From Selaginella moellendorffii (lineage: Eukaryota > Plantae > Lycopodiophyta): a DNA stretch of 64,000 bases. Positions 11,169 through 62,900 of this stretch are shown in pieces. Under the pieces are notes generated by a model that worked only from the letters and a program-made list of their open reading frames with translations, was not told where the DNA came from and did no database searches. Both the position numbers and the translations under genes were made by a program. The stretch lies in NCBI RefSeq assembly GCF_000143415.4, contig NW_003314286.1, positions 965,643 through 1,029,642 on the forward strand, in the 5' to 3' direction. Position 1 is the stretch's first letter, and every line of letters begins with the position of its first letter.

Positions 11169-14167
11169 TCAAGCCCGTCGTTGCCTCTTGAGCCTCTCAA
11201 GAGCTCCCAGAGGTTCGTCTTTGTCCCTGTTGTTCTCCTTCCCGGCCTTTGGATTTGCCGGAGCCTTTCCATCGTCTTCTTTTCCTCCATTCTCGGCCTT
11301 GTGAGCCAATCCTCCAAACACCGCGTCGGGAACAGCCTTTTGGACGAGCTTCTCGCCAGTCTCGTCTTCCTCGTCGCTCTCCGGCAACTCTATCTCGTCC
11401 GGATTCTTTTTCGCGTCTCCGGGAGCAAGGATCCTCCCTTCGGCCGCCTGGACTCCAGCGCTCACAAATCCCAGCTGCCTCAAACCTTCTTTCAGCGTCG
11501 ACGGAGGCTGCGTCTGACCGACCGGAGCAATCTGCCTTTCGAGAGCGGCCATTTCGTCCTCTGGAACCCCGGCGCGCTTCAGAGTGTCTACAGTTTCTTC
11601 CAGAGAGAGCCGTCCTTGATCTCGTTGCATCAAGTACTCCGGCATTATCATGTGCATCTGTTTGGAAAAGTTGATGAGCAAAGCCGGATTCTAGAGGAAC
11701 GGGAGGAAGAAAACGAAAACTTGCCTGAGTGTAGCTGGCATGCACGCTACGTTTGATCCGGAGCATCTCCTTGAAAGTGTCGTGGTTTCCATGCGTAACC
11801 TCGAAGTCATGCCATTTCGACCAGACCTCGGTATCTGACCGTGGATCTGCCATTTGCGACGCGTAGATATAAATAGCACGAGCACGATCGATCTCTCCCA
11901 GCGTCCTCTCCAGCTCTGCAAACTTCAGACACATAAGCTTCGCGTCTTTGTCTGGAAGACCGGATTGAATAGCTTCCTGGAAGAAATAACAACACAAGAG
12001 AAGGTTAAGTCACGGCAAAGAAACTACGGGAAAGCAAAAAACGAATTTTTACCTCGTAGATATCCCGTGTCTTAGGAACGCCATATATCTCAGCTGCTCT
12101 GGCAATGTAGATGTCATAGACGCTCAGCTTTTCACCATCGAGAACTGCCTTAGTCGCCCGATCGTAGATTTTCATCGCGCGTTGCGCCAGTCCAAAGTCT
12201 TCTTCAAGCTTTGCATATTGTAGATAAACTGGTTTCGCATCCTCCGGAGTAACCTTCTCGATGGCCTGCTCAAACAAGTCCCTTGCTCTTTCCAGCTTCT
12301 TCCCACCGTAGCGTTGGACAAACTTCGTGAGATACGTTGTCCAGATATCCCGTGCATGAGGATACTTGAAAACCTGGACACCTTTCTCGTACACCCCAAA
12401 CGCGTCCTCAAAGTACTTGTTCTCCTCCAGCATCGCCGCATAGTTGATGATAATCTGCGGCGTAGCTATCTTGTGCACCAGAATCTGATCGTAGACCTTT
12501 CGAGTAGACTCGAGAGTACCCAGGCTCTCTTCCAAATCCACGTAAGTCGACCACAGCTTGAGTGACCTGTAGAGCTTCATCTGAACGGGAAGATCACGGT
12601 CCCCTTGCATCAGCTTCTTCGTCGCGAAAGACGGCTCCATTGTCGCCTTCTTGAGGATGTCTCGAGCAGTTTTGTAGTTTTTGTGCTTCATCTCCATCTC
12701 GGCCCAGGCGCAGTACAGGCTCGCGAGGTCGTCCACTGTCTTGTAAATCTTCTGAACTGCTTTCTCAAACACCACCCGAGCGTTCTTCAAGTCGTTCTGC
12801 GACTCGTATAGGTGCGCGTAAGCTGTCCACAGGGAGTGATACTTCCCGACAGCTTTGAAGGGGTCCACAGTCATCACCGCCTCAGTGTAAGTTCTGACTT
12901 GGCGAGCAGGATTGTCCTTGAAAAGACTCGCTCGCTTGTGCCACTCATGGACGTTGTGGGGATTTTGCCTGAGCACCACGCTGCTAAGAAGCTCGGGCCT
13001 CCGCTCGATCAAGTACGAAAACCTCGCCAGGAGCAAGTCGACGTCGTTCTCATCAAACACCCAGAAATCCTTGAGATTGTCCTTCTTCCACTGCGCTAGA
13101 ATCTTCCTCTCCCTCCTACGCTTCTTTAGCTCCTTTTCCGGCAGCGCCACCGTGTTCCCATCCGCATCCACTTCCACCATCTCCGACTCATCCAGTTCCT
13201 CCTCGGACTCCTCATCCTCCTCTCCCATCCGGCTCATCTTGGCAGAGAGCAAACTCTCCTCGAACTTGGAGTACGCATCGAAGATGAGGCTAAAGTCCCT
13301 GACCGTGGTGACCGTCGTCATCCCCTCCTCGTACACATCCCTGACTTTCTCGAACAGCGACAACCGCGCGTAGTAATCCGCCAAGGAAGTCCACAAGCGC
13401 CCGACCTCGTCCGTAAAGTTCCGGATACCACCCCGGATGATCGCATCCACCTGGAGCCCCGACACCTCGTGTGCATGCTTGGTGAGCAAATCGCAAAGCT
13501 CAAGCCATAGCTGGTGCCGCGTCTTGGACTTGACGGACTGGAAGCTCTGATCGTTGAGAACCTCGGCCAGGCGCTCGGCGGCCTCTTGCCACTTGCCGGA
13601 ATCCATCAAGAACTCGATGAAGTCCTCCATGTGTGACGGCTCAAACTTGAGGAACCGCCGATGAACTCTAAATCCCGTCTCGCTGGGCACGCCGGGCTGC
13701 CTCACGAACCTGAGATAGAGCTCCCAGATCCTCTCGTGCTGCGTCACGGGCAGCGAGAAGAGCGCTCGATCGAACGTCCTCCTGGCCTTGGTGACATACC
13801 TCTGCTCGACCAGGGACTGGAGGTAGAGCAGCCAAATCCTGGGCATCTTGTGCATTGTGACGAGCGCGCGCTCGAAAGTGTTGTTGACGGATTCAAAGCT
13901 CGCGTGGCCCGGCGGGAGGCCGCGCACGGCCTCCATGCGCTCCAGGAGGTAGGAATGCCACAGCTTGTAGCTCCCGGGGAGGAACTTGAGCGCGCGCTCG
14001 TAGAGGATGATCCTCTTGCGGAAGGGGACATCAAACCTGGCTTGAATGTAGCGCCACCAGAGGCGCATGGAGTAGGAATTCCGGAGGATCTCCTCCTCGT
14101 ACACCAGCTCCTCGTCCGTGGGGAGGAGGTCCGGATTCATCTCCGACAAGCTCTGCTGCTGCGCCAT
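11169..14167 (-). CDS. SYF1: Pre-mRNA splicing factor SYF1/XAB2 (HAT repeats), 3 exons
   Basis: YEEEILRNSYSMRLWWRYI, LPGSYKLW, MHKMPRIW, LRQNPHNVHEWHKR, SLKLWSTYVDLEESLGT, HGNHDTFKEMLRIKRSV, NPDEIEL. Confidence 0.95.
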
Positions 14168-14256
14168 ACCTGCGGAAGAACCCTAACCCTGGAATATACC
14201 CCAGATGCTTGATACCCTTTATCTTCGATCAAAAAGATTATAATTTTTATTTAGGT

Positions 14257-21668: not shown

Positions 21669-21741
21669 CAAAAAGGTTAGTGATTCGTTTTTCCCTTGTC
21701 CATAGCGTGAAAGACGAAAAGGGTTTTTAGTCCCAAGGTTT

Positions 21742-22608
21742 ATGCCAATGAGCGATGGCGATGGGAAAACGAGGCTGGCCTTCTGGCAACACATGGTGGC
21801 GGGCTCGCTCACGGGCATCATCGAGCACTCGGCAATGTTCCCGGTGGACACCGTCAAGATCCACGTCCAGATGACTCCATCGTCAAACTCTTCTCCCTGC
21901 TCGCGAGCCCTCTCGGGCGCTGTGCGATCCATCCTCAAGAGCGATGGCCCCGCGGGCTTCTACAGGGGCCTGGGCGCGGTGGCGATCGGCGCTGGGCCCT
22001 CGCACGCCCTCCACTTTGCGGTGTACGAGCTCGTTCGCGACCGGCTCGGGGGCAACGAGGACGAGCACCGGCGGCGCCACCACCGCGTGGCGGCGGACAT
22101 GGCCGCGGGCGCCGCCGCCACCATCGCCGGCGACGCCCTCCACACGCCCATGGACGTGGTGACGTGGCGGCGTGTACGGCTGGAGGATCTTCCGTACCAA
22201 GGGTTCCTGGCGTTTTACGCGTCCTACGGCCCCTTCTCCGCCGTACAGTTCGCCACGTACGCGGCCGTCAAGAGGAGGATGCTGGACGCCGGGGAGCACC
22301 GGCGGGGGCGCTGGCCAGCGGGTTTACCACCCCGTTTGACGTGGTAAAAACGAGGCTCCAGTGCCAGGTAAAGATTTCGCTTTTCTCTTGTTGTTCATCT
22401 TGCTCATGTGATGGAATTTTCTTACCAGGGTGTTTGCGGTGCTGCGAAGTATGGGACGAATTCTATAGCTGCGGTTGCGCAACACATTGTTGCAAAGGAA
22501 GGCTGGGCGGCCTTGTTCAAGGAGGTGGTTCCTAGGGTTTTGTTGCATGGTCGACTTACGAGGCTGGGACGGCGTTTCTACGTACTTTGGACTCGTCCAA
22601 GAGCGTAA
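21742..22608 (+). pseudogene. Mitoferrin-like mitochondrial carrier pseudogene
   Basis: FWQHMVAGSLTGIIEHSAMFPVDTVK, GAGPSHALHFAVYE, TPMDVV and TTPFDVVKTRLQCQ|GVCG; internal deletions and a frameshift near 22300. Confidence 0.8.
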
Positions 22609-22745: not shown

Positions 22746-23489
22746 CTAGAAGAAGCACAAGCACAGCAACACAAAGAAGCCCACGAACAAGAGCATCTTG
22801 GACAAAAACCTCTCTTGCTCTTGCTGGGCACTTAACGCAGCATTAGCGGGATTACTCGTCCCATTCGCAGTAGCACCAGCACCGCCGCCGCTGCCTCCAT
22901 TTCCTCCTCGGCTCCCACCGCCGGCTCCGCCGCCGCCACCATTCCCGCCACCGCCGCCAGAAACTCCCGCGCTCCCAAACCCGAGGTCGGGGAAGCCGTT
23001 GCTCGTGGCGGAGAAGCCAAAGAGGAATGGAAACAGTCCAAAGCCGAGCGTCACGTTTCCAAACTGCGTCGTCGCCGATGGCCCTGTGAAGAAACTAAAG
23101 CCCATTTGCTGGAACGCTCCTCCTCCGGAGTGAGAATTTTGCCTGTGCTGGTGTGGGAGATCGGTCCTCTGGCCGGGCGGGCGATTGGGGATATTTTCCA
23201 CGCCCTTTTTGCGCGGATCGCTGGTGCCCTTGCCGCGGCCGTAGATCGGGATCACCTTGGCCTCCTCCACGGCGGATTTGCAGACGGGGCATTCTGTGCA
23301 GCTGGATCGCGAGGCGAGCCAGCGGTAGAGGCAGGGCCAGCAGAAGAGATGGCCGCAGTGCGTGACCACCGGATCCTGCGCGAGCTCCAGGCAGATGTTG
23401 CAATCGTAGCTACCTGATCCGCCATCGCTGCCGCCGGCGCTGGCGCCATTGCTGGTGGCGCCGCTGGGATCGCCGGTGCTGGAATCCAT
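22746..23489 (-). CDS. RMA1/RNF5-like RING-HC E3 ligase with C-terminal membrane anchor, intronless
   Basis: YDCNICLELAQDPVVTHCGHLFCWPCLYRW...CPVCK...VIPIYGRG, IPNRPPGQR and a hydrophobic C-terminus. Confidence 0.92.
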   Translation of the reverse strand: MDSSTGDPSGATSNGASAGGSDGGSGSYDCNICLELAQDPVVTHCGHLFCWPCLYRWLASRSSCTECPVCKSAVEEAKVIPIYGRGKGTSDPRKKGVENIPNRPPGQRTDLPHQHRQNSHSGGGAFQQMGFSFFTGPSATTQFGNVTLGFGLFPFLFGFSATSNGFPDLGFGSAGVSGGGGGNGGGGGAGGGSRGGNGGSGGGAGATANGTSNPANAALSAQQEQERFLSKMLLFVGFFVLLCLCFF

Positions 23490-23653
23490 GCGAGAGGATC
23501 GATCGAGCAAGCCCTAGAAATATCGTGGACCAAATGGCTAGGGTTTTCTTCCTTTATCTTCTTTTGTGTTAAGTTTCCAATGACGAGGGCTTTCGTCGTT
23601 GTTTCTCACGGGGTTGGGGCGGTGTTTGCGCCAGGCGCTAAAGAGCGCTGGCG

Positions 23654-43784: not shown

Positions 43785-46700
43785 ACATATGGAGTGTTAG
43801 ACCAAGTGCAAAGGCCAAGTGGTATAGAGGCCATTCATGGGGCTAACATATCTTTAAATCGGAAATAAAATTTATAAAGGTTGTGAGTGAAATTTTTCTA
43901 AGTGGTCAAAGGAATGAAAAATAAATCACTTACAAATTAGTATCAAAGCTATTCCTTAGTTTAACTCTTATTGATCATTATTACTATCACTATTTGACAT
44001 TGATATATAATGGTCCCAAGAGTGGGGTGATACTCAAGGAGTTGCATGTCAGGAGGGCATGGCTCTCCACTTTAATTCACACATGAACTTATATGCAATG
44101 TGGTGGATAGAAAGGGGCCATTAAGGGAATTACTTTAGGACCTTGGGAACAATAAAAAAATTTACTCAAAAAGTTGAGGATACAATTTATATAAGTATTT
44201 AACTTAGCAAACTAGTTAATATGGTTGTGGTAAATAACTATAGTTTAGATCATGGAAAGGATCTCCAAAATAATAAAGGGGTTGCAAAATTATCCTTATA
44301 TAATTAAGGATGGTCCTTATAAATTTAAAATTATAGTTAATGACTATGAGAGGTAAAATATAGATGAGGATATATATCCTTTGAAATGATAGTTAAGGCT
44401 ATCTTTAATAAAAGCTAAAGGAGTGAGAGGGTATATTCAAAGGATGAGTTGGTGTTCTCATCATATAAAATGATAGTTCTAAGAGGCAAAAGTATTTAAA
44501 TGTGGTGGCACATCAAAAATAGCCATGGGGTTAAGACTTTATAGAATGTTAAATTAATAAAGTCTAAAAAGCTAGATGACTCAGTGAAGTCAAGAAATGG
44601 TCCCAAAAGTTTAGAGGAAACATATTTGGATAAAAATATGTTGTACCTAGTGAATATGAGAATAGTGGGTAACTCATTAATGGTAGAAAGTGCCATATTA
44701 AAGTTGTGGAAAGGTGCTTATAAAAGAAAGCAACTTTGGCAAAGAATTATGTGTAAACACTATGTTGTAGTGCTAATTGATAGTTGGTATAAGAAATAAT
44801 TACTATTGTTTTAGCAAAACTTAGACATAAGTAGGAAGTGTTATGAAGGTAGGCTCATGAGCTAATAGTCTGGAGACACTAAATGTCTCAAAAGATGATG
44901 CTTTGAGGTCAAGGTGGTTGGTTCATGAACCCTAATGAAAATGGAATTCATATATCCTAAGCTAGTAGGCATATGATTCATGTGATTGTACTAAATATTG
45001 ATGGAGGTGTGGAATGAGTTGTAGGACATGATGACTATAAGGCAGCTAAATAAAGGTTTAGAATAATTAGAGTTAACTTCTTGTGACCTCTTGGTAAGAT
45101 AAAAAGGAGGTCAGATACATCCTTTAAGAACCCAATCTCGATAGCTATGGACTTTTAGCTGGAAGGGTTAGTTTGAGCACAACACCAAGTGTGGGGGATG
45201 CCTATAAGGTCATAGTCAACAATTTAAAGGTTTGGTAGATTTAATACTTATTAATAAACATATTAATGTATCAACGTGAGATCACTAGGTGATCCTATGT
45301 CTAAACAAGGATAAGCTAAAGGATAAGTTTCTTAATTCAAAGTGTATACATTAGTATTATGAGTCCAAGAAAATAGTCTTTAAAAAAGGACTTATAGGAG
45401 GGTTGTAAGGTTGGGCTATGAATAGAGCCCATAATAAGAAATATTAAAGAAACTTACTAAAGATGAATACTCTATGAATTTAGTAAACTAGAGCATTTGC
45501 TATGGAATAAAAAAAATACCTCAAGGATGGAAGTAGTGATCCTATGTTACTTGGTACAATAATTAAAGTATAGGAAGATAGAAGTAAAAAACTAATAATT
45601 AAAAATGAGTTTTGGAAATTGCTGGAAGAAATCCAAATGATAAATTAAGTGAGAAATTACTATATAAGGGATAACGATTTGTGGGAAAGGAAATATATTC
45701 TAATGATAAGATTACCAAATGTTTCAATTTAGTAAAGGTGAAAGCTCTAAGAGATAAAGTGGCAATGTAGCCAAATGATCGAGCAAGGATAGCCCCAACA
45801 CAAATTATGGATAAATTGAACTTAATATTTATGATGGTATAAAATAAAAGAGAGGATGATAGTACCCTTAAGTAAAGAATTTTATAAGATGGGGAAGTAA
45901 GGTTTGCATAATTTGTGTAATGCAAAGTGTTGAACACACTTAGAAAATTGACTTGAGATATCAATATTAAAGTTTTAAAGTGTGATGGTTATGTTAGTAG
46001 ATGCCAAGATTACTTTAGAGTGAATAGTAAGATTAAGATAAATAAAGTGTCTCTAATGGGTTTAGCAAGAACTAAATGAACAAAGGGAGAGAACCACCAC
46101 ATATAATCTGATAAAACTCTAAGTTGGAGAGATTATACTCCTTAGAGGATGGGCAAAGCATGGTGAGCCTTTAGTGTTGAGCCATTAATGAATATTGGCT
46201 TGGTGTTAAAGATGAAAATGGTAATCCATGATAAGATTACTTTATAAAATAGTGTCTGAGATGGATTCTGAGCTGGATTTGAGATGGAGTCTGGATGGAA
46301 AACCAAGATCGAGATTGAGTCCAAATCCAAGTTTGAAATCGCATTCGAGTCCGAGACTGATTCCAAATATTAATATAAGTTATGGGGTGAAAGCCCAAAG
46401 TGATCATCCCTCAGGGGGGGGAGGGGGGGCATGTCCTTACGAAGTTCTAAAAAAGTATAATAGAGGAGAAGGAGTCTAAAGTTAGAGTGAACATAAATGA
46501 ACAAATGGGGTAGTTTAGTGAAGTGCCAACTCTAACTCCTATAAAAGATCAAATAGTCAATGCTCCCAATCTAAGTGTAGGTGGCATGATTTACTTGGTA
46601 TCTAGTGTGGTTTATGAAAACCTTGCTCTATCCACATGGTTAGGGCACCCAAAAGCGAAAGGTGGGGGGAGTACCTATGAGGTTTGCATAGGGCCATAGT

Positions 46701-47924
46701 ATTTTGAAATGTCATCCCAAAGTTTTGGATTGTGGAAAAGAAGAAGAACAATCCTATTGTGTAGTGATTAAAGGTATAATCACGTGGTGAGGAATTTCTA
46801 GAGGTCAATAGAACTTAGTGGCCAGGCCTTTAGGCCCAAACTCTACGGCAGTATTAGCAAGCATTACCATGGATGGAGAGGGACTTGATGGGGACCAAAA
46901 GGGGGATATTGGGGAAGGGTATTCCTTATGTTTTGAGGATTTTATAGATGCTAAGATGTGGTACTAGGGTGATCACTTATAGATGGATGGTTTAGTTTTG
47001 GAGAGATGGGATTGTGGTATGGGTGGTCTTGGACTACCAATGAGACAAAGGTGAATGGACATAGCTTTAGTGTAATAAATTGTATAAACAACTAAAAAGA
47101 ACGACTCAAAAGATAGTGTATAGGGTTCAAATATAGAGGAAAAATGCTTATGAACAATAGTGCACTTTTTTTTCCAATTAGTTAAGAGTATTAGGATACT
47201 TAGGATTAAGTGTCCTTGGGTTTGAATAGTACTAGGTTAGGACTTCCTAAGAAGTCTAAATTCAGGAGTTTACATTTGGTATCAGAAAGGTCTTAAGTTA
47301 ACTCTGTTGGTTGGCTTAAAGGAATTGCACCACATGTTAATTGACATTTGGCAAGTTCAGTTTGCTCTAGCTAGTTTTGACTCAAAGGGTAGGGTGTCAA
47401 GAGAGCGGGGCTCTTGAGAGAGCTATGGCTTTTAACTTCCATTCACAAAGTTGTGAACTTGTAGGGAAAAGTAGTGCATTATAAATAACTAAAGAGAACG
47501 ATTCGAGAGACAGTCCATGGGGTTTAAAATATAAAAGGAAAGGGCTTATAAACAAAAATGCACCCCTTTTTCTAATCAGTTAAGGGTCTTGGGATACATG
47601 AGGTTAAACATCCTTAGGTTTGAATAGTACTGGGTTTTGAGAAGTCTAAATTTAAGAGTTTATAGGTTAATATGTCAGTGGTACCTTTAGGTGTTTGTAA
47701 TAGGTTCTGACATATAGAGTGCTTGGACCAAGTGCAAAAGTTAAGTGGTATAGAGGCCATCTATAGGGCTAGCATATCCCTAAGTTAGGTATAAAATTTA
47801 TGGAGGTTATAAGTGAGACTTCTCTACAGGGCTAGTATATCCCCAAGTTAGGTATAGGATTTATGGAGGTTGTAAGTAAGACTCCTCTAAGTAGTCAAAG
47901 GTGTGTCAAAATAAGTGACTTATA
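43785..47924 (+). mobile_element. Old LARD-like non-autonomous LTR element (truncated 5' LTR, decayed PBS, internal domain, 3' LTR)
   Basis: LTR end ...cacttaca at 43934 followed by tagtatcaaagc (decayed Met PBS); 45130-46245 is homologous to 53590-53660 plus 61129-62260; 46250-47924 is homologous to the LTR at 49360-51055. Confidence 0.7.
47083..47664 (+). mobile_element. TRIM of about 580 bp nested in an LTR: LTRs at about 47083-47274 and 47480-47664
   Basis: Direct repeats of about 190 bp, PBS TGGTATCAGA at 47277, purine tract before the second LTR; the flanks rejoin into the host LTR sequence (compare 63925-63965). Confidence 0.75.
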
Positions 47925-49359
47925 AAAATATTTTCAAATTCATCACAGAGCTTTCAAAACTAATGGCTCAACCTTTTAAGCCTTATAAACTTCATTAAGA
48001 GAAGATAAATTTTGCAACTGCTGATAGCATGGAATCCTTGTTTAGAAAATCAAAAGAAGGTAAATAAACAACTATTGATAGCATGGAATCCTTATCCAAA
48101 AAATCTACAAATGTTGGAATAATAGGCTCCTCATGAACATGAGAACAAAGCAAGAAAGGTATTTAAAGCTTTAAAGCACACATAGCATTATGTCCAACCA
48201 AGTTATTTAACTTAAATAATGAAATAACCACAACATGATAACCTTCTAGTAATGGTATGAAAAATAGTTTTGGGATTATCTTCCTTAGCCATTGACACTT
48301 GCCAATACCCAGAAGCAAGATTTAACTTGGTGAACTAATAAATTCTCTATAGATAATCCAAAAGATTAGTAGTGTGAGGAATAGGGTACACATCCGAAAT
48401 AATCATTTAATTTAACAAATGATAATTAATGTAGAAGGGAATACTCTCATAAAGCTTTGTTACAAGATATGGTTCACACATCTAAAGACTTCGAGACTTT
48501 TAGATAATACTGTTCTCCAATATCTCCTTAATATTTGTGAGTAAAGTCTTGATTATCTTTGGTGACTGATGTTGAATTGGAACTTTGATTGAATGAGCAT
48601 CCCCAGTTGAAATAGAATGATGTGTTGCAATCTTAGTTATAGATGATAGATTGAAGTTAAAGAGATCAACATCAATTGGTCAACTACTACCATTAAAAGG
48701 ATTTGGAGAGGGAGTAAAAGAGCAAAATAAAAACACAATAAGAAGTAATAAGGAGACAAAAGTGATGGAAGTAAAAGTAAAAATGGAGGTACGAAGGGGA
48801 ATAAAAGTAAAAGGAATGGAAGAAATATAAAGAAGTATGAAATAAGGGAGAGAAGCTTCAAAATCACATTTAATATAACTGTGCTATAACAATCCATACC
48901 AAGGACAAGGTCAAAAACTTGACTCAGCACCACCCTCAATAATTGAAGTTCAAACTCGAGATCACTTACACGTATAGCTAGGTTTGCCTCATCCTACACA
49001 TATGCATATGTATGGCTATTGCCATAAAGAATAAAGACTAACTTTGCTGCACAATACAATTGTAAATGGCAATATGTGGCAATAGGTCGAGAAATAAAAG
49101 ATAAAGTCAAGCCTATATCAATTAGCATAGAGAGAATGATAAAAATCCTTTTGTGATTTGTGTTTAAAACTATAGCCTTCACAAATGAGGTGTACAGTAC
49201 TTACGGCTGCTAACTTGTTAGGCATCTCAACTATGGGATCTGGCAAACTTGAACATCACATTCTAAGAGCATTGTGGGCCCTCCTCAAAAGTCCCATGCT
49301 CTCATGTATGAAAACAAGCTTAGAGTAAACACTAAATGAACTAATGCCAAGTGAACCAC

Positions 49360-51055
49360 TGTGAGACACAAAATCCCTAGGCCCCAAAGTGGAGCCGGAA
49401 AGGGTGCCACGTGGTAGTGGCCGAAGCGAAAGCCAAATGAGTGTAACACGTTTGGACTAAAAGCTCTGACTTGGAAGGTCGAGAGCGAGAGTGGAACTCC
49501 CAACAAAGTGCTCAAGGAACGAGCACGAAGGGAGCAATAAGCAAGGCTCCGAAAAGGGACCCAAAAAGGACTAACACATGACACGTGGAAGTGTCCGAGA
49601 TGGAGTCCGAGGCGGACCCGAGTTGGAGTCCGAGATGGACCCGAAGTGGAGTCCGATATGGAGCCCGAGATGGACCTGAAGTGGAGTCCGATATGGAGTC
49701 CAAGATGGAGTCCGAGATGGATCTGAGATGGACCTGAAGTGGAGTCTGAGATGGAGTCTGAGATGGAGTCTGATATGGAGTCCGAGATGGATCCGAGATG
49801 GACCCGAAGTGGAGTCTGAGATGGAGTCTGAGATGGTCCGAGATGGAGTCCGAGATGGACCCGAGATGGAGTCCGAGATGGACCTGAGATGGAGTCCAAG
49901 ATGGACCCGAGATGGAGTCCGAGATGGAGTCCGAGATGGAACCGAGACCGAGACCGAGACCAAGACCGAGACCGAGTCCGAGTCCGAATCTGGGACTGAG
50001 ACCGAGTCCGAGTCCGAATATTAATACAGGCAGTTGGGTGAAAGCCCAAAGCGATCATCCCCCGCGGGGGGGGGGGGGGGGGGGGGGGCCCCCCGGGGGT
50101 TCCCAAAAATTTATAGGGAGAGGGGGGGGGTTGGAACCCCGGGGAGCCCCTTTGGCCAGGAAAGGGTATTTTGGCCCCGGAAGGGCCAACCTAAAGGGGG
50201 GGGGGGGGCCGACCCCGGGGGAGCCCCAAAATAAGGGGGACCCGGCCCCCCCAGGGGGGGACCTTGGGGAAAGGTTCAAAAACCGGGCCTTTTTCCCCCG
50301 GGGAAACAACTGGGCGAAGCCCCCCGGCCAAGGGGGGGGGGGCCCCCCCTCTTGGGAACCCGGGGGGGGTTAAGGGGACCCCCCTCTTAGCCCCGGGGTA
50401 GGGCCCCCCAGGGGGGGAGGGGGGGGGAGAACCCAGGGGGGTCCCGGAAAGGCCCCGGGTTCCCAAATGTTGTCCCCAAAGGCCCAGACTGTGGAAAGGA
50501 AGAGGAGCAGTCCTCTGGGGTAGTGACCAAGGACACAGTCGTAGGTTGAGGAAGTCCCAGAGGACCATGGGACTTAGTGGTCGGGCCTGTGAGCCTTGAT
50601 CCAATGGCAGTGTCGACAGACATGGCCATGGGTAGAAAGGGATTTAGTGGGGACTGACAGAGGGATATTGAGGAAGGCTATTCCCCTTGTCGGTGGGCAT
50701 CCTAAGGATGCTAAGGAGTGAATCTGAGATGACGACTCACGGATGGTTTGCCTAGTCTTGGAGAGCCAAGACGAGGATGCATATGGTATTGGACTACCAA
50801 TGTGGCAAAGGTGATTGGGCATGGCCTTAGCATGACAAGTTGCCATGTCGGTGGTACCTTTGAGTGTCGGTCATGGGATCGAACACGTGAAGCACTTGGA
50901 CCAAGTGCAAATGTTGAGTGGTATGGATGCCATTCTCGGGGCTAGCAAGCCCCAAGTCCTGAATTGGACTTATGGAGGTTGTGAATGAGACTCCTCCAAG
51001 TGGTTGGAGGTGTGGTTAAGTGACTAAAGTAGAATGGAAAATTTAATCGCTTACA
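49360..51055 (+). mobile_element. Solo LTR (1696 bp) with 5-bp TSD ACCAC
   Basis: TGTGAGAC...CTTACA flanked by accac at 49355-49359 and 51056-51060; homologous to the LTR starting at 62312. Confidence 0.9.
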
Positions 51056-51916
51056 ACCACTTGATGGTACTCCCAAAAGAAGGATGGAGGGGTCACTATC
51101 TTATTTGTGCAAAGACCCTTCACTATTTGTATGATTCTTTATTTCCTAGAAGAATCTTTGTGTCAAAACCTTCCACTATAACAGCACCAATACAACATTG
51201 TTGATGCCAAGGCCTTCATCCAGAAAATGAAGGATGTCAATCTAGAAAATATTGACAATACCGATATATGTGGCCAACCTCATCACATGCCTAGTAGTAG
51301 ACATCTCGGCCACGACCACGTCCTTATCCTTGTACTTTAATACGAGCAGCAGTAACATCAACCTCTATCAAAACAGGACCATCTTTTATAAGAAGTAGAG
51401 TTGAATGGTATGTAGCGAGAAGTGGAAGAGGTGATATCTCATAACATTATGCCAACTGAAAAATATTGTCATAGTTAGAGCAAGTGCATGCACAAATCCC
51501 ATAAGATCTTGATGAAGTGTTAGTTACAACATTCCCAACCTGATCAACTCCAATATATTTAACTCCAAACAAAACAAGATGCTCTTGAAGTAAATGCCAA
51601 ATTTCATCATTGACTTTGACAAAGACAATGCAATTGTTGAAAGGCATCATCACAATTGTTAGCATGTTCAAATGTGCATTTGAAAATGTTTGGGTGTCAT
51701 TTGACAAGTGGATGCACTGAAATTATTATACCATTGTAATGCCGTTCTTTAGAGACATATAGAAACTTATACAAATGCTAAGCATCTCAAGAATGATAGG
51801 TGGCAATCACCATAAAGTGATTAAACCAATGGTACACATCATCACTAAAATTCCCATATAAGAATTCTGACGAGACGTGAGTATTGGTAATAAGAGCAAG
51901 AGGAGTTGTACCATAT

Positions 51917-53128
51917 TGTAAACTCTTGAATTTGGACTTCTTGGGAAGTCATTTAGCTTAGTACTATTCAAACCCAAAGACACTTAACCCCAAATATCTC
52001 AAGACCTTTAACCAATTGAAAAAGGGGGTGCACTCTTATTTATGGGCCCTTTCCCTCTATATTTGAACCTTTATAGATTGTCTCTCGAGTTGTTCCCTTT
52101 GGTTGTTTACAATCCATCATGCTTCTTTGCAAGTTCATGCCCTCATAAACAGAAGCTAAGAGCTGTAGCTCTCCCAAGAGCCCCGTTCTCTTGACACCTT
52201 ACCCCTCAGGTCGAGCCCAGCCGGAGCAAATTGGACCAGCCAAATGTCAATCAATATGTGATGTGATTCCCCTAGCCAACCAACAAAATTGGATTTGAGA
52301 CCTCTCCGATACTAAACTATAAGTCACAAATTTTTCCTTTCCAATTTGCCAACTTACCTTGTTTATCCGACTAACACTACCTTGGACTTAATTAAGTTCC
52401 CTTGCCAAGGTTTCTGCCTATTGTACTAGCTCTTACTTAGTCCTACTTGGTTTTAGTTACTCACTGCACAAGTAATGGAGTGTTAGCCATCCATCTATGG
52501 ATTCCTAAATCTCTCCCAATCCCCCTCCCCGGGTTAGACTGGACTTAAGGTTTAGTTACACTCCCCGCAGGTATAAGTAGCCAAGCACACAAAGCCTTCA
52601 GGTTCTTAACATCCCTTGGTACACCAAGACTTGACCATGAGCCTTTAAATCCCAAGCCTTGGGTGCAACACTTACTTTCGAACGCTAGGGGGAAACACTG
52701 TGGCTTAATGGCCTGGTATAGGTACCCCTACTCGTCCACTTCCATCCCAAAGGGAAGGCCCAAACCCCTAAGAAAGGCAAGGACTAATGAGCCACAAGAT
52801 ACTCAAGTGGGGCACCACTTCATAGAAGCTAGGAGCATCGTAGTCGGTTGCCTTTTCAAGAGTGGGAGCTACTCTTGAGCACTTCCTTGGGTGGCCCCTC
52901 TGGCACCACCCGAGTCCATGCTCACTCCCACCCAAGGCCCCTGGACCCAAGTCTCAACCTCAAGTCAGTTTGGAAGCACTATTGAAGAGTTCTTTCAATA
53001 TTGGTTCCTAGACCTCACTATCCCTATTATACTTTTTGAACCTTCTGCACTCTTATTCATGAGCTCTTTCCTTCTATATTTGAACTCTTATGGATCGTCT
53101 TTTGAGTCGTTCCTTTTGGTTACTTACA
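51917..53128 (-). mobile_element. Chimeric TRIM whose 5' LTR is part TRIM, part chromovirus LTR
   Basis: Minus strand: TRIM LTR start (53128 to about 53046), then chromovirus LTR 3' portion (about 53045-52318), PBS-like tagtatcggag, TRIM internal region, full TRIM LTR (about 52111-51917); flanks catat/tatat. Confidence 0.75.
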
Positions 53129-53744
53129 TATATGCCATAAATGTTGCCATCAACTGAATTGTATAACATTGAATAATTACATCAACTGCTACTCTAGAGT
53201 TAAAGAAGGAGGATATTGTTGCTTTGCCATGAAAATGAATGAACAGAAAAAAAAAAAAACAAAGTAAAAGAGAAGAAATTGAGAAAAACTATCAGGAAAG
53301 TGAGATCTAAATGATGCAAATGCTAAATCAAAAGCCTAATCCAAGCACTTCTTGGATTTGGGTTCGAGTCCCAAATCACTAGGGCGTGGTGATGGTTTGG
53401 AATATGAGGACACTCATATTTCGGTGGTCATGGACTCTTAGTGAGGAGACTAGTTTGGGCACACCGCCAAGCGAGGGATGCCTCCGAGTCGTGATGCACG
53501 GTTAGATTGCTTAAAGTGAAAGTTCAGCATATCTAACTTGAACCCTTTGGTGCAAAGAGCACCAAGGACGTGGTGAATGAGATGTGGACACCCAATCTCA
53601 GTTGCTATGGATCCGGTTTTAGGCTTGGGCGCACTGCCAGGTGTGGGGGATGCCCCCGGGTGTAAGGAACCAACTCGCCGAGGTGTCGTAGGCTAAAGGA
53701 ACCCCAAAAGCATGACCAAAATGACAAAGAGTTCATCAGATGGG

Positions 53745-53990
53745 ACGAAGTCGAAGATCGAGTCCAAGACCGACTCTAGGACTGAGTTCGAGATAGAGTC
53801 CGGAATCGAGTCCGAGACCGACTCGGGGACCGAGTTCGAAACGGAGTCCGAGATCCGAAATCGGGTCCCAGACCGAGTCCGAGGTCGAGTCCGAGGTCGG
53901 GTCCGAGATCGAGTCCGAGATCGAGTCCGAGACCGAATCCGAAGTTGGATCTGAAATCGGGTCCGAGATCGAGCCAGAGACTAAGTCCAA
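53745..53990. repeat. Degenerate CCGAGN/TCGAGN hexamer arrays inside LTRs (also 49590-50017, 60045-60330 and 62545-63160)
   Basis: Tandem ccgaga/ccgagt units and gagatggagtcc-type units; source of the low-complexity ORFs. Confidence 0.9.
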
Positions 53991-54845
53991 ATACTAATAC
54001 GGGTCAAGGGGTGAAAGCCCAAAGCGTGCGTCTCCCGGGGGGGGGGGGGGGCTGCAGGGGGTTCCAAAAGTATAGTAGGGATAGTGAGGTCCAGGAACCA
54101 GTCTTGAAGGAACTCTTCAGTGGTGCTTCCAAACTGACTTAAGGTTGAGACTGGGGCCGAGGGGCCTTGGGTGGGAGTGAGCATGGGCTTGAGTGGTGCC
54201 GGAGGGGCCACCCAGGGAAGTGCTCAAGAGCAGCTCCCACTCCCGAAAGGGAAACTGACTGCGGTGCTTCTGGCTCATGTGGAGTGGTGCCCCACTTGAG
54301 TACCTTGTGGCTCATTGGTCCTCGCCCTCCCTAGGGGCTTGGGCCTTCCCTTCGGGATGGAAGTGGGGGGGTAGAGGTACCCATACCGGGCCGTTAGGCC
54401 ACGGTGTTTCACCCCGATGTCCCGAAGCAAGTGCTGCACCCAAGACTTGGGATTTAGAGGGTCCCATGATCAAGTCTTGTGGTACCAAGGGGTGTTAGGA
54501 ATCTGGAGGCTTGGTGTGCTTGGCTGCTTGTGCCTGCGGGGAGTGTAGCCGAACCTTAAGTCCAGTCTAACCTGGGGAGGGGGATTGGGAGAGATTTGGG
54601 AATCCGTAGATGGATGGCTAACACTCCGTTGCTCGTGTAGTGAGTAGCTGAAACCAAGTAGGACGAAGTAGGAGCTGGTACCATAGGCGGGAACCTTGGC
54701 GAGGGAATTTAGCACAAGCCAAGGCAGAGTTGGTCGGATAGACGAGGTAAGCTGGCAAATTGGAAAGGAAAAATTTGTGGCTTACAATTTGGTATCGGAG
54801 CCTCTTCCTCAGTTCTAGCGAAGGATAGAGGCAGATTGCTGGGAG

Positions 54846-57800
54846 ATGGCAAGGGCAGTATGTAAGCGAACTCAAGCAGAGACGGAACCTCCTCCAGAGC
54901 TGGAGCCTCCGGTCGAACAGGAGGCTATGGATGAGGAATCCTTGCATGAGGAAGACTCTAGTGAGACAATTGGACGTTCTAGAAGGACAATTGGCATAGA
55001 CCAATGCCCTGCTAGAGACTCTCGTACGCAAGCTAAAGTGTGATGAGAAGCGGAAGAAAAAGCGAAAGACTGCGGATGCTGGCAGCGCAGAAGGTGCGGA
55101 CCCTTCGGCAGGGACTGAGGCAAAACCAGACAAGGTTGAACAGACCGAAGTGGAATCAGTCCCTCAGGCAATTCCCAAGTACAAACCAAAGCCCCCACCG
55201 GTCTTTAAGGGAGTGAATGACTATAAGGTGGTGGAGGATTGGTTTTACGATATGGAGGACTACTTCCGAGCGTTGCGATTACCGAGCTCGGAGAAGGTCT
55301 CATGTGCAAAACCATACTTGGCAGATAATGCCAAGTCTTGGTGGAGAACAACAGAGGCCAACGAAGGACCAGTGGCCACTTGGGAAATGATGAAGGCGAG
55401 GATCCGCGCAACTTACGTTCCTCCGAATGCTACTCTGCATCTAAGGGATGAGCTAAGTAGGCTGAAGCAGACCGGAACCATTCAAGAGTATGTGAATGGG
55501 TTTATGGCAAAGAAGATACTTGTCACAGACATGGGGGATATGGATGCGTTCCATGCCTTCATATCAGGTTTGCAAACCTGGGCTTGCGGTGAAGTGATGC
55601 GGTGCAACCCGACTAACTACAAGGAAGCGTTGGATGCGGCCATCAAGGTGCATTTCAACGATAACCTGTGAAAAGGGAACACGATGGGGTCGAGATCCAT
55701 GTTAAGCAAAGGGGCCAAACCAAGGGGAACTTTTAGCAGAGGGAAATTCAAGAAGAGTTTCTCTAAGAATGAGTCCTCGGGGTTCCGGAAAGGCAAATCC
55801 GGTGGCCAACGAGCGAGTACGTGGGGGAGTCAAGCGAAAAAAGACAAACCCACGGATAAGAAGGTCAAGTCGTATAGCAGCGTGGGAAACAACGTATGCT
55901 ACAACTGCGGTGAAGCGGGACACTTCTCAAGGGAATGTCCCTACCCGAAGAAGGCTAGAGCCAATATGGCCATCAAGTCGGGTGAAGTCCAAACTGAGGT
56001 ATGTGATCCAGTCCCTAACTCAAAGTTACTCATTACACGAGCAACTTTGGTAGAGAGTCGTTTGCGACATCTACTAGCCCTCCGAGGGAAGCTCGGAGGT
56101 AGCTTTGTTAAGATCCTTATTGACACGGGTGCTTCGGATAATTTTGTGGCTGCAGACATAGTCCGGCAAGCCGGACTAACGGTGCAGCGGCTAGGTGAAC
56201 CAAGGACTATAGAGTTTGTTCAAGGTAGCCAAAGCACCGATGAGGTACTTCGACAAGCGAGAGTCGAAGTAGGGACATGGAAAGTGGACATGGATTTCAC
56301 CGTGTTGGACATGGCGGGATTTGACGTGATCTTCGGAATGGACTGGTTCAATCGGTTTGTGGTAGCCTTGCATGGACAAGGTAGGAACTTTGTGGTACTG
56401 GCGAATGCCCAAGGAAGAAGATCTAGGGTGGAGGCCCAAGATCTAAGGGTAGGGCAAAGCCAGGCCAAAGATTCCTGCTTAAACCTGGTGTCCACGAGAG
56501 GACAACTCACTAAAGGAACTAAGGTAGCCTTTTTGTGCTTACTCTTGGTGAAGAGTGACAAAAAGACAGGAACGGAAGAAGTACCTTTAGTGATCCAGCG
56601 GGTGTTGGACCAATTCTAGGATACCATGCCGGAGGAGCTACCGGTGGGGCTGCCCCCATCACGACCAATAGAACACAAGATTGAGCTGGTCGAGGGTGCT
56701 GAGGCGGTGGTTCGTCCCCCTTATCGTTTGAACGAAAAAGAACTCGAGGAGCTCAAGTGCCAACTAGAGGAGTTGGTGGACAAAGGGTATGTTAGGTTGA
56801 GCAAGTCGCCATATGGGGCGCCAGTGTTATTTGTGAAAAAGAAAGATGGATCTATGCGCATGTGCATAGACTACCGGTTGCTCAACAAGTATACAAAGAA
56901 GAACAAGTACCTTTTGCCAAGGATTGAGGACCTGTTCGATAGGTTGGGAAAGGCAAAATACTTCTCAAGGATTGACCTAAGGTCAGGATACTACCAGATC
57001 AGGGTATCTGAGGAAGATGTCGAGAAGACAACCTGTCGAACGAGGTATGGTAGCTTTGAGTTTCTGGTGATGCCCTTCGGGATATGTAATACGCCGGCAA
57101 CGTTTTCGGCGCTAATGAACCACATCTTTGTACCCTATCTGGATCACTTCATGGTCGTCTATATCGACGACATCCTGATCTATAGCGAGACGCTAGAGGA
57201 GCATGCCGAACACTTGGCGAAGGTGTTTGAGAAACTAAGGGAACACAAACTGTATGCTAAAGAGAGCAAATGTGACTTTGCTCAATAAGAGGTAAAGTTT
57301 CTGGGGCATGTGGTGGGCCAGAACGGGCTCAAGGTGGACCCGGAGAAGGTCCAAGCGATCTAGGAATGGGAGCGACCATCGAATGTACACGAGTTGAGGG
57401 CATTCCTGGGGCTATGCAACTACTATCGAAAGTTTATCAGATACTATTCGAGAGTAGCCCTGCCCTTAACGGACCAAACAGGAAAAGGGAAGATGGTGTG
57501 GACAGCGGAATGCGAGGCGGCATTCGTCCACCTCAAAGGGAAGTTGAGGAAGGCTCCCGTATTGGCATTACCAGACTTTGGTAAGGACTTTGAGGTAGAA
57601 ACGGATGCTTCGGACTTTGCGTTGGGCGCAGTTTTGAAGCAAGACAACCATCCGGTAGCGTTCTTCTCGAAGAAGTTGGACAAGGATCAACGGAAGTGGC
57701 CTGCCCACGAGAAGGAATTGTTTGCGGTGGTCAAGGCGCTCAAGAAATGGCGACACTACCTTGGGAGACACTTCAAGGTTTACACGGACAATGTGGCAAC

Positions 57801-59620
57801 GAAACACTTCTTGTCACAGCCCGACCTGAGAGGGAAACAAGGTCGGTGGGCCAATGCCTTGGCCGAGTTTGATTGCGAGATTCTGTACAAGCCTGGGAAG
57901 AGCAACATCGTGGCGGATGCGCTAAGTCGAAAAGCGAGCTTGAGGTTGGCAATATCCAGCGCAACAGCAACCTTCTGGGACGATGTGCGGACAGCATATG
58001 AGAACGATGGTCTAGCACAAGAAGTGTTGCTGAGGAATCTAGAGGCGCGGGAAGCTCACCAAAGAGGTGAGCTGCCAACGGAAGAGAAAACGGGCTATGC
58101 GGAACGCAACGGACTCATCTATTACAAGCAAACGAGGGTGTATGTTCCAGAAGGGGAACTAAGGAAGGTGGCCTTAGAAGAGTGTCATGACGGACCTCTT
58201 GCGGGACACGGCGGAGTGCCCAAGACGATGGGCTTACTCAAGAGGAAGTACCATTGGCCAGATATGGCTAAGGAAGTCCAAGACTATGTAAAGACATGTC
58301 CAACATGTCAGTAGGTAAAAGCCGTGACTAAGGCTAGTGGGGGCTTGTTGCAAAGCATCCCAATTCCAGATCGTCCGTGGAAATGTCTTACGATGGACTT
58401 CATCACGGGACTCCCCCCAAGCGAGGGGTTTGATGCGATATTCGTGGTGGTGGACTGATTTTCGAAAATGGCACATTTCATACCCACCACAACGGAGGTG
58501 GATGCGGAAGGTGTGGCGAAGCTATTCTTCGAACAAGTGGTTCGAGTGCGGGGAAGACCGGATCGAGATAAGATCTTCACCAGTAGGTTCTGGAGGACTC
58601 TCCTGGAACAATATCGCACCAAGTTGAAATTCAGCACAGCCTATCACCCACAGACAGGTATGGGGTATTAAGTCAAGTTGTTGGCACTAACACTTCTTGA
58701 CAGATGGACAAACGGAAAGGGTGAATAGGCAGCTGGAGGATTATTTGCGATGCTATGTCTCGAAAGACCAGACCGATTGGGTAAGTCATTTGGGACTTGC
58801 GGAAATGTGTTATAACAACTCACCACATTCGAGTATCGGGGTGAGTCCATGGGAAGTCATCAATGGGCGAGCTATTGAAGGTCCTGTGGAACTCGGCGTG
58901 GCCGAGTATCATGGAGAGTTGCCCGCAATGGAGGCATTCACGGCGGAAAGACTCAGCATTTGGAATTTAGTGAGGGATTCCTTGGAACGGGCTCAACAAA
59001 GGCAAACTAAATACGCGAACCAGAAGTGTCGGGATGTAAAGTTCCAAGCTGGGGAGAAGGTGTGGCTGAACACCAAGAACCTCAGACTACCAAGTGGGAT
59101 CAGCCGAAAGTTGACCCAAAGGTAAAGATGCATGTATTTCTGTAAATGAATTGATCTTGAGTTCCTTAAGCAGGTTCGCGGGGCTTTACAAGATTGAGGC
59201 ACGAATCGGTAAAGTGGCTTACTGACTCCGACTTCCTCGAGAGATGGGGAAGATGCACCCAGTGTTCCACGTGAACTTACTCAAGCCGTACTTTGAGGAT
59301 CCGCTTTGCAAGGACCAAGTGAGACCTTTACCTGAGGTTATCCAAGGGGAAGAGGAATACGAAGTCGAGGCCATCCTCAATGCGCGCAAGAGCAAGTGAC
59401 AAGGACACGAGGTGAGAGAGTTCCATGTGAAGTGGAAAGGATTTCCACATTGCGAAGCAACATGGGAACCGGAGGAGAACCTAGCGAACGCGTGAGATCT
59501 AGTGGAGGAATTTCTGTAAGGCAGAACTCTATGTACTTATGCAAAATTCAATTAAAAATATCAATTTGCAAAGTTGAGCAAGTGGCACATGTTGGGACCC
59601 GAAGGCGCGCCGAAGGTAAG
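54846..59620 (+). pseudogene. gag-pol of the chromovirus (Gag, zinc knuckle, PR, RT, RNase H, IN, chromodomain) with nonsense codons and 2-3 introns
   Basis: CYNCGEAGHFSREC, LIDTGAS, YIDDIL, TDASDFALGAVL, HDGPLAGHGG...CPTCQ, HPQT|DGQTERVN, YEVEAIL...VKWKGF...TWEPEENL. Confidence 0.93.
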
Positions 59621-59957
59621 CTAATTAGCATGGGTTAGCTATGTCGACCAGGCGTAGGGCACTACGCCCGACTCCCCGCGGGGATGTCGAATCCGTAGAC
59701 GTATTCTACGGAGGTTGGGTTCGAGTCCCAACCCCCTAGTAAAGCAAGGCTGGGTTCAAGTCCCGACCCCATACTAGGGCGTGGTGAGGTGAGGGGTATA
59801 GGGACACCTATATCCCGTTGTCATGGGCTCTTGGCCGGGGAGGCTAACTTAGGCACACTGCTAAGTGGGGGGATGCCCCCGGAGACATGGTCAACAAGTC
59901 ATAGGATAAAACGAGACGTTCGATGTGGGCATCGAACTTCTTCTATGGGTGGTGGAG
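59590..59957 (+). ncRNA. Putative structured cis-acting RNA in the chromovirus 3' UTR
   Basis: More than 10 consecutive hairpins; a multi-way junction module recurs at 53355-53499, at 53578-53660 plus 61129-61140, and decayed at about 45130-45220, with compensatory stem changes. Confidence 0.6.
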
Positions 59958-62900
59958 TTGTAAAGAACCAACTCGCTGAGGTGTCGTAAGCTAAAGGAAC
60001 CCCAAAAGCATGACCAAAATGACAAAGAGTTCATCGGATGGGACGAAGTCGAAGATCGAGTCCAAGACCAACTCTAGGACCGAGTTCGAGATAGAGTCTG
60101 GAATCGAGTCCGAGACCGACTCGGGGACCGAGTTCGAGTCCGAGTTCGAGACCGAGTTTGAGACGGAGTCCGAGATCCGAAATCAGGTCCGAGACCGAGA
60201 CCGAGTCCGAGGTCGAGTCTGAGGTCGGGTCCGAGATCGGGTCCGAGATCGAGTCCGAGATCGAGTCCAAGACCGAATCCGAAGTCGGATCCGAAATCGG
60301 GTCCGAGATCGAGCCAGAGACTAAGTCCAAATACTAATACGGGTCAAGGGGTGAAAGCCCAAAGCGTGCATCTCCCAGGGGGGGGGGGCTGCAGGGGGTT
60401 CCAAAAGTATAGTAGGGATAGTGAGGTCCAGGAACCAGTCTTGAAGGAACTCTCCAGTGGTGCTTCCAAACTGACTTAAGGTTGAGACTGGGGCCGAGGG
60501 GCCTTGGGTGGGAGTGAGCATGGGCTTGAGTGGTGCCGGAGGGGCTACCCAGGGAAGTGCTCAAGAGCAGCTCCCACTCCCGAAAGGGAAATCGACTGCG
60601 GTGCTCCCGGCTCATGTGGAGTGGTGCCCCACTTGAGTACCTTGTGGCTCATTGGTCCTCGCCCTCCCTAGGGGCTTGGGCCTTCCCTTCAGGATGGACG
60701 TGGGGGGGTAGAGGTACCCATACCGGGCCGTTAGGCCACGGTGTTTCGCCCCGATGTCCCGAAGCAAGTGCTGCACCCAAGACTTGGGATTTAGAGAGTC
60801 CCATGATCAAGTCTTGTGGTACCAAGGGGTGTTAGGAATCTGGAGGCTTGGTGTGCTTGGCTGCTTGTGCCTGCGGGGAGTGTAGCCGAACCTTAAGTCC
60901 AGTCTAACCCGGGGAGGGGGATTGGGAGAGATTTGGGAATCCGTAGATGGATGGCTAACACTCCGTTGCTCGTGTAGTGAGTAGCTGAAACCAAGTAGGA
61001 CGAAGTAGGAGCTGGTACCATAAGCGGGAACCTTGGCGAGGGAACTTAGCACAAGCCAAGGCAGAGTTTGTCGAATAGACGAGTTAAGCTGGCAAATTGG
61101 AAAGGAAAAATTTGTGGCTTACACCGGGGTCATAGTCAACAATTTAAAAGGGTCTGGAAGACCTAGTTCCTATTGGTAGACCTGTTAAGGGGTCAAGATG
61201 AGATCACCAAGTGATCTTGTGGCTAAACAAAGACAAGGTCTTTGTTTGGGTTAAGGAATATAATTCCTAGTTCAAAGTGTTGATTTGAACTATTGATAAT
61301 GGTGTGGCTTGGTCGAGGTGACCAAGTGGGAAGGACACTTAAAGGAAAATTAGTTGTGCCAGTACGATGGTATAGTAAGTCCAAGAAAATAATCTCGGGG
61401 AGAGACCCATGGGAGGGTCGCAAAGTTGGGCCATGGATGAAGCCCGTAGTAGAAATTGCTAAAGAGACCTACTAGGGGTGAGCACCCGCTGGACTTAGCA
61501 AAGTAAAGCCTTTGCCATGGAACCAAAAGGATACCTCGAGAATGGAGGTAGTGATCCTATGTTGCTCACTGCAACAATCAATGGATAAAAGCAAAAGACT
61601 AGTGGCCAAATGTGTGCCATGGAGTTCATTGAAAGGAATCCAAATGGCAAAGTTAGGCATGGAATACTAATGTGTTGGATGCTAACGGATTGTGAGAAAG
61701 GAAGTGTGCTTCCAAGGATGGATTCCCAAATGCTTCAAGTTGGCAAAGGTGAAAGCTCCACGGGAGGGAGCGGCGAAGTAGCCAAAAGATAGGGCCTTGG
61801 ATAACTCTAGCACAGCTTATGATGGCTAGAACTTGGTGCCAAAAGTGGCATAAAATAGAAAGGAGGACAATGGCACCCTCAAGTGAGGAGCTTCCTAGGA
61901 TGGGAAGTGAAGTTGCACAATATGTGCAGTGAAAGGTGTCAAAGACACCAAAGAAATTAACTTTAAGAAGTCAAAATTAAAAATTCCAAGGTGAATTGGT
62001 TATGTCAATAGAAGTTGGGACTACTCGAGAATGTGTAGTGGGGTTGAGCTAGAGAATGGGTCTCTAATAGGTTTAGCGAGAGCAAACCCAATAAAAGAGA
62101 GAGAACCACCTGAGGTGGTCAAATGAGTCTTTATGTTGGAGACACTATGCTCCTTAGAGGTTGAACAAGGCATGGCAAGCCTTCAGTGTCAAACCATTGA
62201 CAAATATTGGCTAAGTGTCAAGGATGGTGAATGTAATACATGCTAGTGTTACTTTATAAAACGATTTATCATTCGATGAGGACATTGAACTTCGTCTATG
62301 GGTGGTGGAGTTGTGAGACACAAAATCCCTAGGCCCCAAAATGGAGCCGAAAGGGTGCCACGTGGTAGTGGCCGAAGCAAAAGCCAAACGAGCGTAACAC
62401 GTTTGGACTAAAAGGCTCTGACTTGAAAGGTCGAGAGCGGGAGTGGAACTCTCAACGGAGTGCTCAAGGAACGAGCATGAAGCGAGCAATAAGCGAGGCT
62501 CCAAAAAGGGACCCAAAAGGACCAACACATCACACGTGGAAGTGTCCGAGATGGAGTCCGAGATGGACCTGAGTTGGAGTCCGAGATGGAGTCCGAGGTG
62601 GACCCGAGATGAAGTCCGAGGTGGACTCGAGATGGAGTCCGAGATGGACCCGAGTTGGAGTCCGAGGTGGAGTCTGAGATGGACCAAGATGGAGTCTGAG
62701 AAGGACCCAAGATGGAGTCTAAGATGGAGTCCGAGATGGAGTCCAAGATGGAGTCCAAGATGGAGTCCGAGATGGAGTCTGAGATGGACCCGAGATGGAG
62801 TCCGAGATGGACTGAGATGGAGTCTGAGATGGACCCGAGATGGAGTCCGAGATGGACTCGAGATGGAGTCCAAGATGGAGTATTACAAGAACTTTAAAGA

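Follow-up and report, generated by a model that had tools for sequence, protein, structure and literature searches.

The 3' UTR of a Ty3/gypsy chromovirus in the genome of Selaginella moellendorffii carries an RNA module of about 120 nt for which comparison of four copies supports a conserved fold with its structure under selection. The copies, here called A to D, lie in a window of 64,000 nucleotides, the whole stretch of DNA that was analysed (contig NW_003314286.1, positions 965,643 to 1,029,642), and all are on its plus strand. A preliminary description had named helices and loops for copies A to C, and all of these are present at the places it gave. The multi-way junction that it proposed is also real, but it had missed one arm, P3, and the junction is four-way.

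In copy A, the core of the module (59817–59895) is built on a bulged closing helix, P1/P2 (59817–59830 with 59882–59895), which surrounds the arms P3 (59831–59847, with a variable purine loop), P4 (59848–59865, with an 8-nt loop) and P5 (59866–59881, with a GATG loop). With at most one unpaired base between P3, P4 and P5, the four-way junction is near-perfect. Directly 5' of it stands P0 (59793–59816), a 10-bp hairpin with a GACA loop and a pair probability of 0.99–1.0 in context. The internal loop of the module is 2x1 or 2x2. P4 can be drawn in two registers, and one of the double changes reported below hinges on the register chosen.

The other copies differ in completeness. B (53381–53499) is complete and forms the first of a tandem pair with C. 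The 5' part of C occupies 53569–53660 and has P3 deleted in this copy; C is split by the insertion of the element that carries A, which entered at the base of P5, as seen from the target duplication (53656–53660 and 61124–61128), and the 3' strand of its closing helix follows the second duplication at 61129–61140. D (45130–45220) is a decayed homologue of C.

Paired changes in the stems carry the case for an RNA structure. When A and B are aligned with MAFFT and the output is left unedited, 71 of 72 cells are paired and 6 of 37 pairs are changed on both sides, a result reached by 3 of 500 shuffles, and slid-register controls are 37–47% paired. A table registered by hand, and therefore fitted to the structure, compares three independent versions: between A and B it gives 36–38 canonical pairs of 38 with 7–8 double changes (permutation p 0.001–0.0001), between A and C 22 of 22 with four double changes, and between B and C 22 of 22 with five. 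Across these three comparisons the permutation p ranges from <0.0001 to 0.008, with substitution types kept throughout. The same table gives no significant covariation between D and C (18 of 22 canonical, p 0.32). The loops are invariant while the stems differ at 24 of 76 positions, in line with the earlier claim of conserved loops and paired stem changes. Most double changes are G-C/A-T transitions and one is a transversion. Among the 98 pairs of A, B and C, 13 are G-U and none is A-C, which points to RNA on the sense strand; neutral deamination should yield both, and the decayed copy D has seven G-U and two A-C in 28 pairs.

Built from nothing but A and B, a covariance model retrieves C at 42 bits and D at 41 bits, and its remaining 12 matches in the 64 kb, at E up to 5, reach 12.6 bits at most. 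One of these, a weak fifth match at 59630–59693 (12.6 bits, E 0.064), is a 10-bp hairpin followed by a bulged helix, like a small P0 plus P1. On the plus strand, A (59793–59897) folds with a z of -5.5, a value equalled by none of 200 shuffles, and B with a z of -2.6, reached by three of 200; on the minus strand the values are -2.2 and -1.3. The mean z of the 3' UTR is -2.8 (6 folding windows), against -0.5 and -0.6 for the two LTRs (19 folding windows each) and -1.0 for the leader and coding sequence (84), and the interval with the module ranks second of 162. The closing helix of A has a pair probability of only 0.07 with the whole UTR folded (59521–59960) and does form in the fold of 59620–59960; that of B has a pair probability of 0.3–0.55. 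The earlier suggestion of selection on RNA structure thus finds support in folding z, in covariation and in the retrieval of C and D by the A and B model.

The families behind the copies are represented in contigs of a DNA run (X1), of which 18004 align on 58500–60050 and 4398 on 53335–53680, counts that mark both families as high-copy, although copy number does not follow from depth. The element of B and C breaks off on its 5' side at about 53358, and the absence of family depth 5' of 53347 indicates that it is truncated here. B and C are bridged by X1 contigs, which makes the tandem a family-level trait, and the P3 arm that the window copy of C has lost is present in other copies of the C family. 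In one X1 contig, chromodomain-coding sequence and the module are linked and are followed by 438 letters unlike A, which suggests that B and C may belong to a coding sister family. The heavily decayed element around D still has an LTR end, a site resembling a PBS and an internal region of about 2.3 kb, in which tblastn detected no coding remnant. The module had been described as shared by autonomous and non-autonomous elements: A indeed sits in a gag-pol element and D in one with no detected coding remnant, but the non-autonomous status is shown only loosely, with B/C 5'-truncated.

Variation within the families bears on the pairing as well. Among 39 variant rows for the B/C region, 16 fall in the range of B and 11 of these at paired positions, where 10 keep the pairing; the variant at 53418 (31% of depth) breaks a P0 pair of B, and two paired positions of P3 both differ from the window, at frequencies of 81% and 91% counted site by site. 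C>T changes at CG sites make up many of the compatible variants; such changes yield G-U in any case, and these variants weigh little as evidence. Among the 40 of 92 variant rows listed for the A region, one lies in the module core (59814) and is compatible with pairing. Between module C and its polypurine tract (PPT) and LTR lies a non-coding, hairpin-rich spacer (61141–62311, plus strand) homologous to the stretch after D. It has no open reading frame (ORF) of 120 codons, which makes an internal ribosome entry site (IRES) or enhancer for a downstream gene unlikely. A dense run of hairpins at 61141–61400 (z -4.5) directly follows C and has its homologue after D.

The chromovirus that hosts A (53661–61123, plus strand) is 7463 bp long and flanked by a 5-bp target duplication. 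Its LTRs (53661–54786 and 59959–61123; 1126 bp and about 1165 bp) contain poly-G runs of 15 and 11, the PBS begins at 54787, and the coding order is gag-PR-RT-RH-IN-chromodomain. Gag has one CCHC zinc knuckle, several stop codons interrupt the coding part of this copy, and the last exon, of 115 codons, gives a Chromo match at E 1.5e-10. Module A follows the last stop codon (59520) and precedes the PPT (about 59945–59957), which places it in the 3' UTR.

Two GT-AG introns appear to interrupt the integrase region on the plus strand, one of 46 nt at 58658–58703 and one of 52 nt at 59122–59173, before the SH3/chromodomain exon. The evidence for splicing is one contig (X15), from a run guessed to be RNA, which lacks exactly 46 and 52 nt with record positions contiguous across both gaps. 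DNA contigs (run X1) cover both introns, and none of the 15 joints listed, out of 36, skips the introns exactly. The X15 contig ends at 59502, although contigs cannot show RNA ends, and downstream of the stop codon the sequence becomes AT-rich and includes a poly(A)-like hexamer (59550). Unspliced, the reading frame stops in intron 1, and the module lies 1.1 kb downstream of that stop. Raw RNA reads numbered 9 and 1 on 58500–60050 and 1 and 0 on B/C, in samples of about 12% of each run that are too sparse for ends or strand. Plant LTR retrotransposons are generally without introns, with Ogre and EVADE named as exceptions in the consulted part of a 2025 review (PMC12786077). No description of the module or of the introns was found in the literature searched, which was mainly open-access; Repbase entries and the REXdb supplements, outside that search, may annotate the introns or the sequence of the element.

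The host element fits the published description of SM1-Galahad. The host species is S. moellendorffii in both cases (the SYF1 protein encoded in the window is 99% identical to the S. moellendorffii protein, and the next species are at 67–68%), and the element reported under that name is about 7.5 kb long, with LTRs of more than 1 kb that carry poly-G of 11–25, a tRNA-Met-type PBS, and a main ORF that ends before the chromodomain and is followed by two short ORFs (PMC3350952). Its chromodomain has a short ORF to itself, about 113 aa long (PMC3350952), where our element has the 115-codon last exon. The two extra ORFs reported there are exons in the present reading, and the two introns would account for them; the part of the published description available to us mentions neither a 3' UTR structure nor introns (PMC3350952).

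Further features accompany the module in the 3' UTR. A single-stranded 8-mer upstream of P0 is identical in A (59780–59787), B (53385–53392) and C (53569–53576) and could form 5–6 bp with the P4 loop in all three copies; within the paired stretch a single loop position varies, between U and C, and its partner is a G. Composition-matched permutations give this pairing a chance of 2–11%, before correction for the 21 segment pairs tried, and it has no double-sided change. We regard it as a candidate pseudoknot, a hypothesis with weak statistics. A DIS-like palindrome in the P4 loop was rejected, as it is not common to A and B. Two hairpins resembling the T-arm of tRNA, with 7-nt loops, precede A (59713–59733 and 59748–59768) and also match the Pol III B-box consensus; one such hairpin precedes B (53355–53377) and none lies directly upstream of C. 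Their loop is self-complementary over 6 nt, and when the whole UTR is folded the two before A reach pair probabilities of no more than 0.3 and 0.1. The usual definitions of the T-loop, B-box and hammerhead motifs are used here. The 5' part of the 3' UTR holds another hairpin run (59620–59712, plus strand, z -4.7), and a hairpin at 59918–59937 stands just before the PPT; this hairpin and the PPT also occur before the LTR at 62312.

The module has no Rfam family, and no copy was found outside the S. moellendorffii genome among the loci searched. Against Rfam, the region 43000–64000 gave 14 matches at E up to 10, all below the gathering threshold and none on A, B or C, in agreement with the preliminary description, which had recognised no known family. 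A pattern scan of metagenomes returned 10 matches, none similar to the window, and a viral scan 24; all 34 loci score 12 bits or less by the module model. An integrase-led search with a single protein found no loci, and a broader one found 12 viral and 34 genome-bin loci, mostly at 29–46% identity. In none of these 46 loci, which are distant gypsy elements, does the model find the module (best E 0.18), and they are too distant to stand for Galahad relatives in ferns or mosses. The 34 genome-bin loci lie in bacterial or archaeal bins, and their gypsy-type integrase matches are likely eukaryotic contamination.

Several known classes of RNA were tried and rejected. The core of a hammerhead ribozyme or retrozyme is absent from A, B/C and D and has no Rfam match there, and the module lacks the 5+6-nt internal loop with a cleaved CA by which twister-sister is defined (PMC11620745), its own internal loop being smaller. 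No tRNA genes were called, which disposes of a tRNA or permuted tRNA. A Helenus-type TRIM with a tRNA-like promoter does not fit B boxes that are internal, outside the LTR and without an upstream A box, and a complete Pol III unit does not fit the lack of a strict A box upstream of the B box and of a run of four T after A or B. The loops, GACA and GATG, are not the GACG of the gammaretroviral packaging hairpin.

We hypothesize that the module is a cis signal, similar to the avian DR or the MusD MTE, that routes full-length, intron-retaining genomic RNA to nuclear export and to packaging by Gag. This reading, drawn by analogy, is the one we favour and consider quite possible, though we hold it tentatively. 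As genomic copies retain the introns, the RNA that is reverse-transcribed would have to be the unspliced one, and a full integrase-chromodomain would need spliced RNA. A compact surface for protein binding would be made up of the invariant loops together with the 8-mer, which a pseudoknot with the P4 loop may lock in place. It would be bound by an export adaptor of the host or by the Gag of the element itself, not by NXF1, a receptor reportedly not used by plants (PMC12786077). Replication would have to exclude the spliced mRNA, which could, for instance, end upstream of the module.

Position speaks for such a signal: as with known DR-like elements, the module lies between the last ORF and the 3' LTR, on an RNA with retained introns; the copy pattern and a probable compactness also agree. 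Retroelements meet this need through structured cis elements close to the 3' end: in the 3' UTR, 5' of the LTR, avian leukosis virus (ALV) is reported to carry a single DR and Rous sarcoma virus (RSV) two, and the DR acts in both export and packaging (PMC9143442). Like these and the CTE of MPMV, the module is structured, occurs in one or two copies and belongs to an RNA that retains introns; unlike them it is a four-way junction in a plant, whereas the avian DR and the MPMV CTE are described as hairpins that depend on NXF1, and the Rfam search at E up to 10 gave no match at the module. The MTE of MusD, adjacent to the 3' LTR, depends on both a pseudoknot and a kissing loop (PMC4588558). It shares with the module a multi-stem fold, its position and long-range tertiary contacts, for which the module has a candidate, and the sizes are comparable if the whole 340-nt UTR domain is counted; however, the function of the MTE is proven by mutation, whereas the module is known from sequence and resembles it by analogy rather than by demonstrated homology. 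LARD and TRIM elements, non-coding LTR elements that keep a folded internal RNA (PMC7215508), resemble D and the spacer after C, whereas the module is found in a coding element too and its structure is resolved to single pairs.

With no match to a known export element in the Rfam search, the case for export rests on position and analogy. Being 3' of the introns, the module would also be on the spliced RNA unless that RNA ends early. The protease-coding stretch at 56100–56500 folds about as strongly as the module (z -5.4 to -5.7), so an export signal could lie elsewhere; the export element of MLV overlaps pro-pol (PMC4588558). Of the roles listed in the preliminary description, export and packaging fit the position and the intron-bearing host, and neither a ribozyme nor a translation enhancer found support.

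A more specific form of the hypothesis, which we think rather unlikely, is that the module is a genome-selection element: a pseudoknotted four-way junction flanked by T-arm mimics that would export and earmark RNA with retained introns, independently of NXF1, alongside a spliced integrase-chromodomain mRNA that terminates early. If true, it would be the first element to select the genome at the RNA level in a plant LTR retrotransposon, and the chromovirus would in this way retain spliceosomal introns within pol. According to the consulted part of the 2025 review, how the RNA of plant LTR retrotransposons is exported has not been studied directly (PMC12786077). The locus offers a candidate signal of 120 nt, resolved to the base pair, in an element that has to distinguish spliced from unspliced RNA, and a candidate this compact makes the export question testable with short RNAs and a reporter.

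The main rival to an export signal is a pure packaging or dimerisation signal, read by Gag in the cytoplasm and with no role in export. The T-arm loops, being self-complementary, could form kissing contacts from one RNA to another, and in each of A, B and C the GACA loop is complementary over 2 bp to the GATG loop, which would allow a kiss like that of gammaretroviral GACG loops. The module is also kept in D, an element without detected coding sequence, and the Gag of the host element has its CCHC knuckle. The box B stem-loop of brome mosaic virus resembles the T-loop of tRNA. That stem-loop is reported to be needed for RNA recruitment (PMC5869524), and GACG tetraloops function in packaging and dimerisation (PMC516450). 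The gammaretroviral GACG hairpins likewise come as two short hairpins with invariant GA-initiated tetraloops, but those of the module have other loops than GACG, lie 3' and are not adjacent to each other; a 2-bp complement is expected by chance, and C has no T-arm hairpin directly upstream. Packaging signals are, moreover, mostly 5'. We judge packaging alone to be possible but unlikely. Less probable again is a role in 3'-end processing or stability, in which the fold would shield a long unspliced RNA from early polyadenylation, nonsense-mediated decay (NMD) or exonucleases. An RNA that stops in intron 1 would have a long 3' UTR, and the AT-rich stretch with its hexamer and the end of the spliced contig at 59502 could be read in the same way; however, the RSV stability element lies directly after the stop codon (PMC9143442), whereas the module is 1.1 kb from the intron-1 stop, and elements without a reading frame would not need protection from NMD.

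The remaining explanations are all improbable in our view. Perfect B-box matches at 59719, 59754 and 53362, together with Cassandra and Helenus as precedents (PMC10886601), could make the module a small RNA of an internal Pol III unit, or the boxes DNA-level sites for TFIIIC, but the missing A box and T runs, the place of the boxes outside the LTR, the lack of called tRNA genes and the lack of a box in C leave this very unlikely. That the module has no specific function, with general folding of retroelement RNA, DNA hairpins or deamination mimicking covariation, would accommodate the predominance of transitions among the double changes, the strong folding of other regions and a comparison limited to three versions. 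The observed pairing nevertheless exceeds a permutation null that keeps the transition bias, and G-U without A-C, the transversion double change and invariant loops amid changed stems also oppose it; we give it very little weight. Lowest of all we place a new self-cleaving ribozyme: the four-way junction, the invariant loops and the T-loop-like hairpins would suit one, and other retroelements carry ribozymes (PMC11620745), but the hammerhead core, the twister-sister loop and any Rfam match are lacking, and a cut here would part the RNA from its PPT and 3' repeat.

Other features of the window lie around these elements. LTRs of otherwise different families share a GAAA-tetraloop hairpin before poly-G (46385, 50036, 54009, 60349 and 63163). 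At 49360–51056 lies a solo LTR, about 1.7 kb long and flanked by a 5-bp target duplication; an LTR of this type also comes after the C element, at 62312. Small TRIM-like elements with a PBS are found at 51914–53128 (minus strand) and 47083–47662 (plus strand), the former carrying a large piece of the LTR type of element A, and a decayed reverse-transcriptase remnant (27–39% identity) lies at 48254–48600 (minus strand). Host genes in the window encode the splicing factor SYF1 (11197–14182, minus strand), a piece of a mitochondrial carrier (21711–22532) and a RING-finger protein (22746–23510, minus strand).
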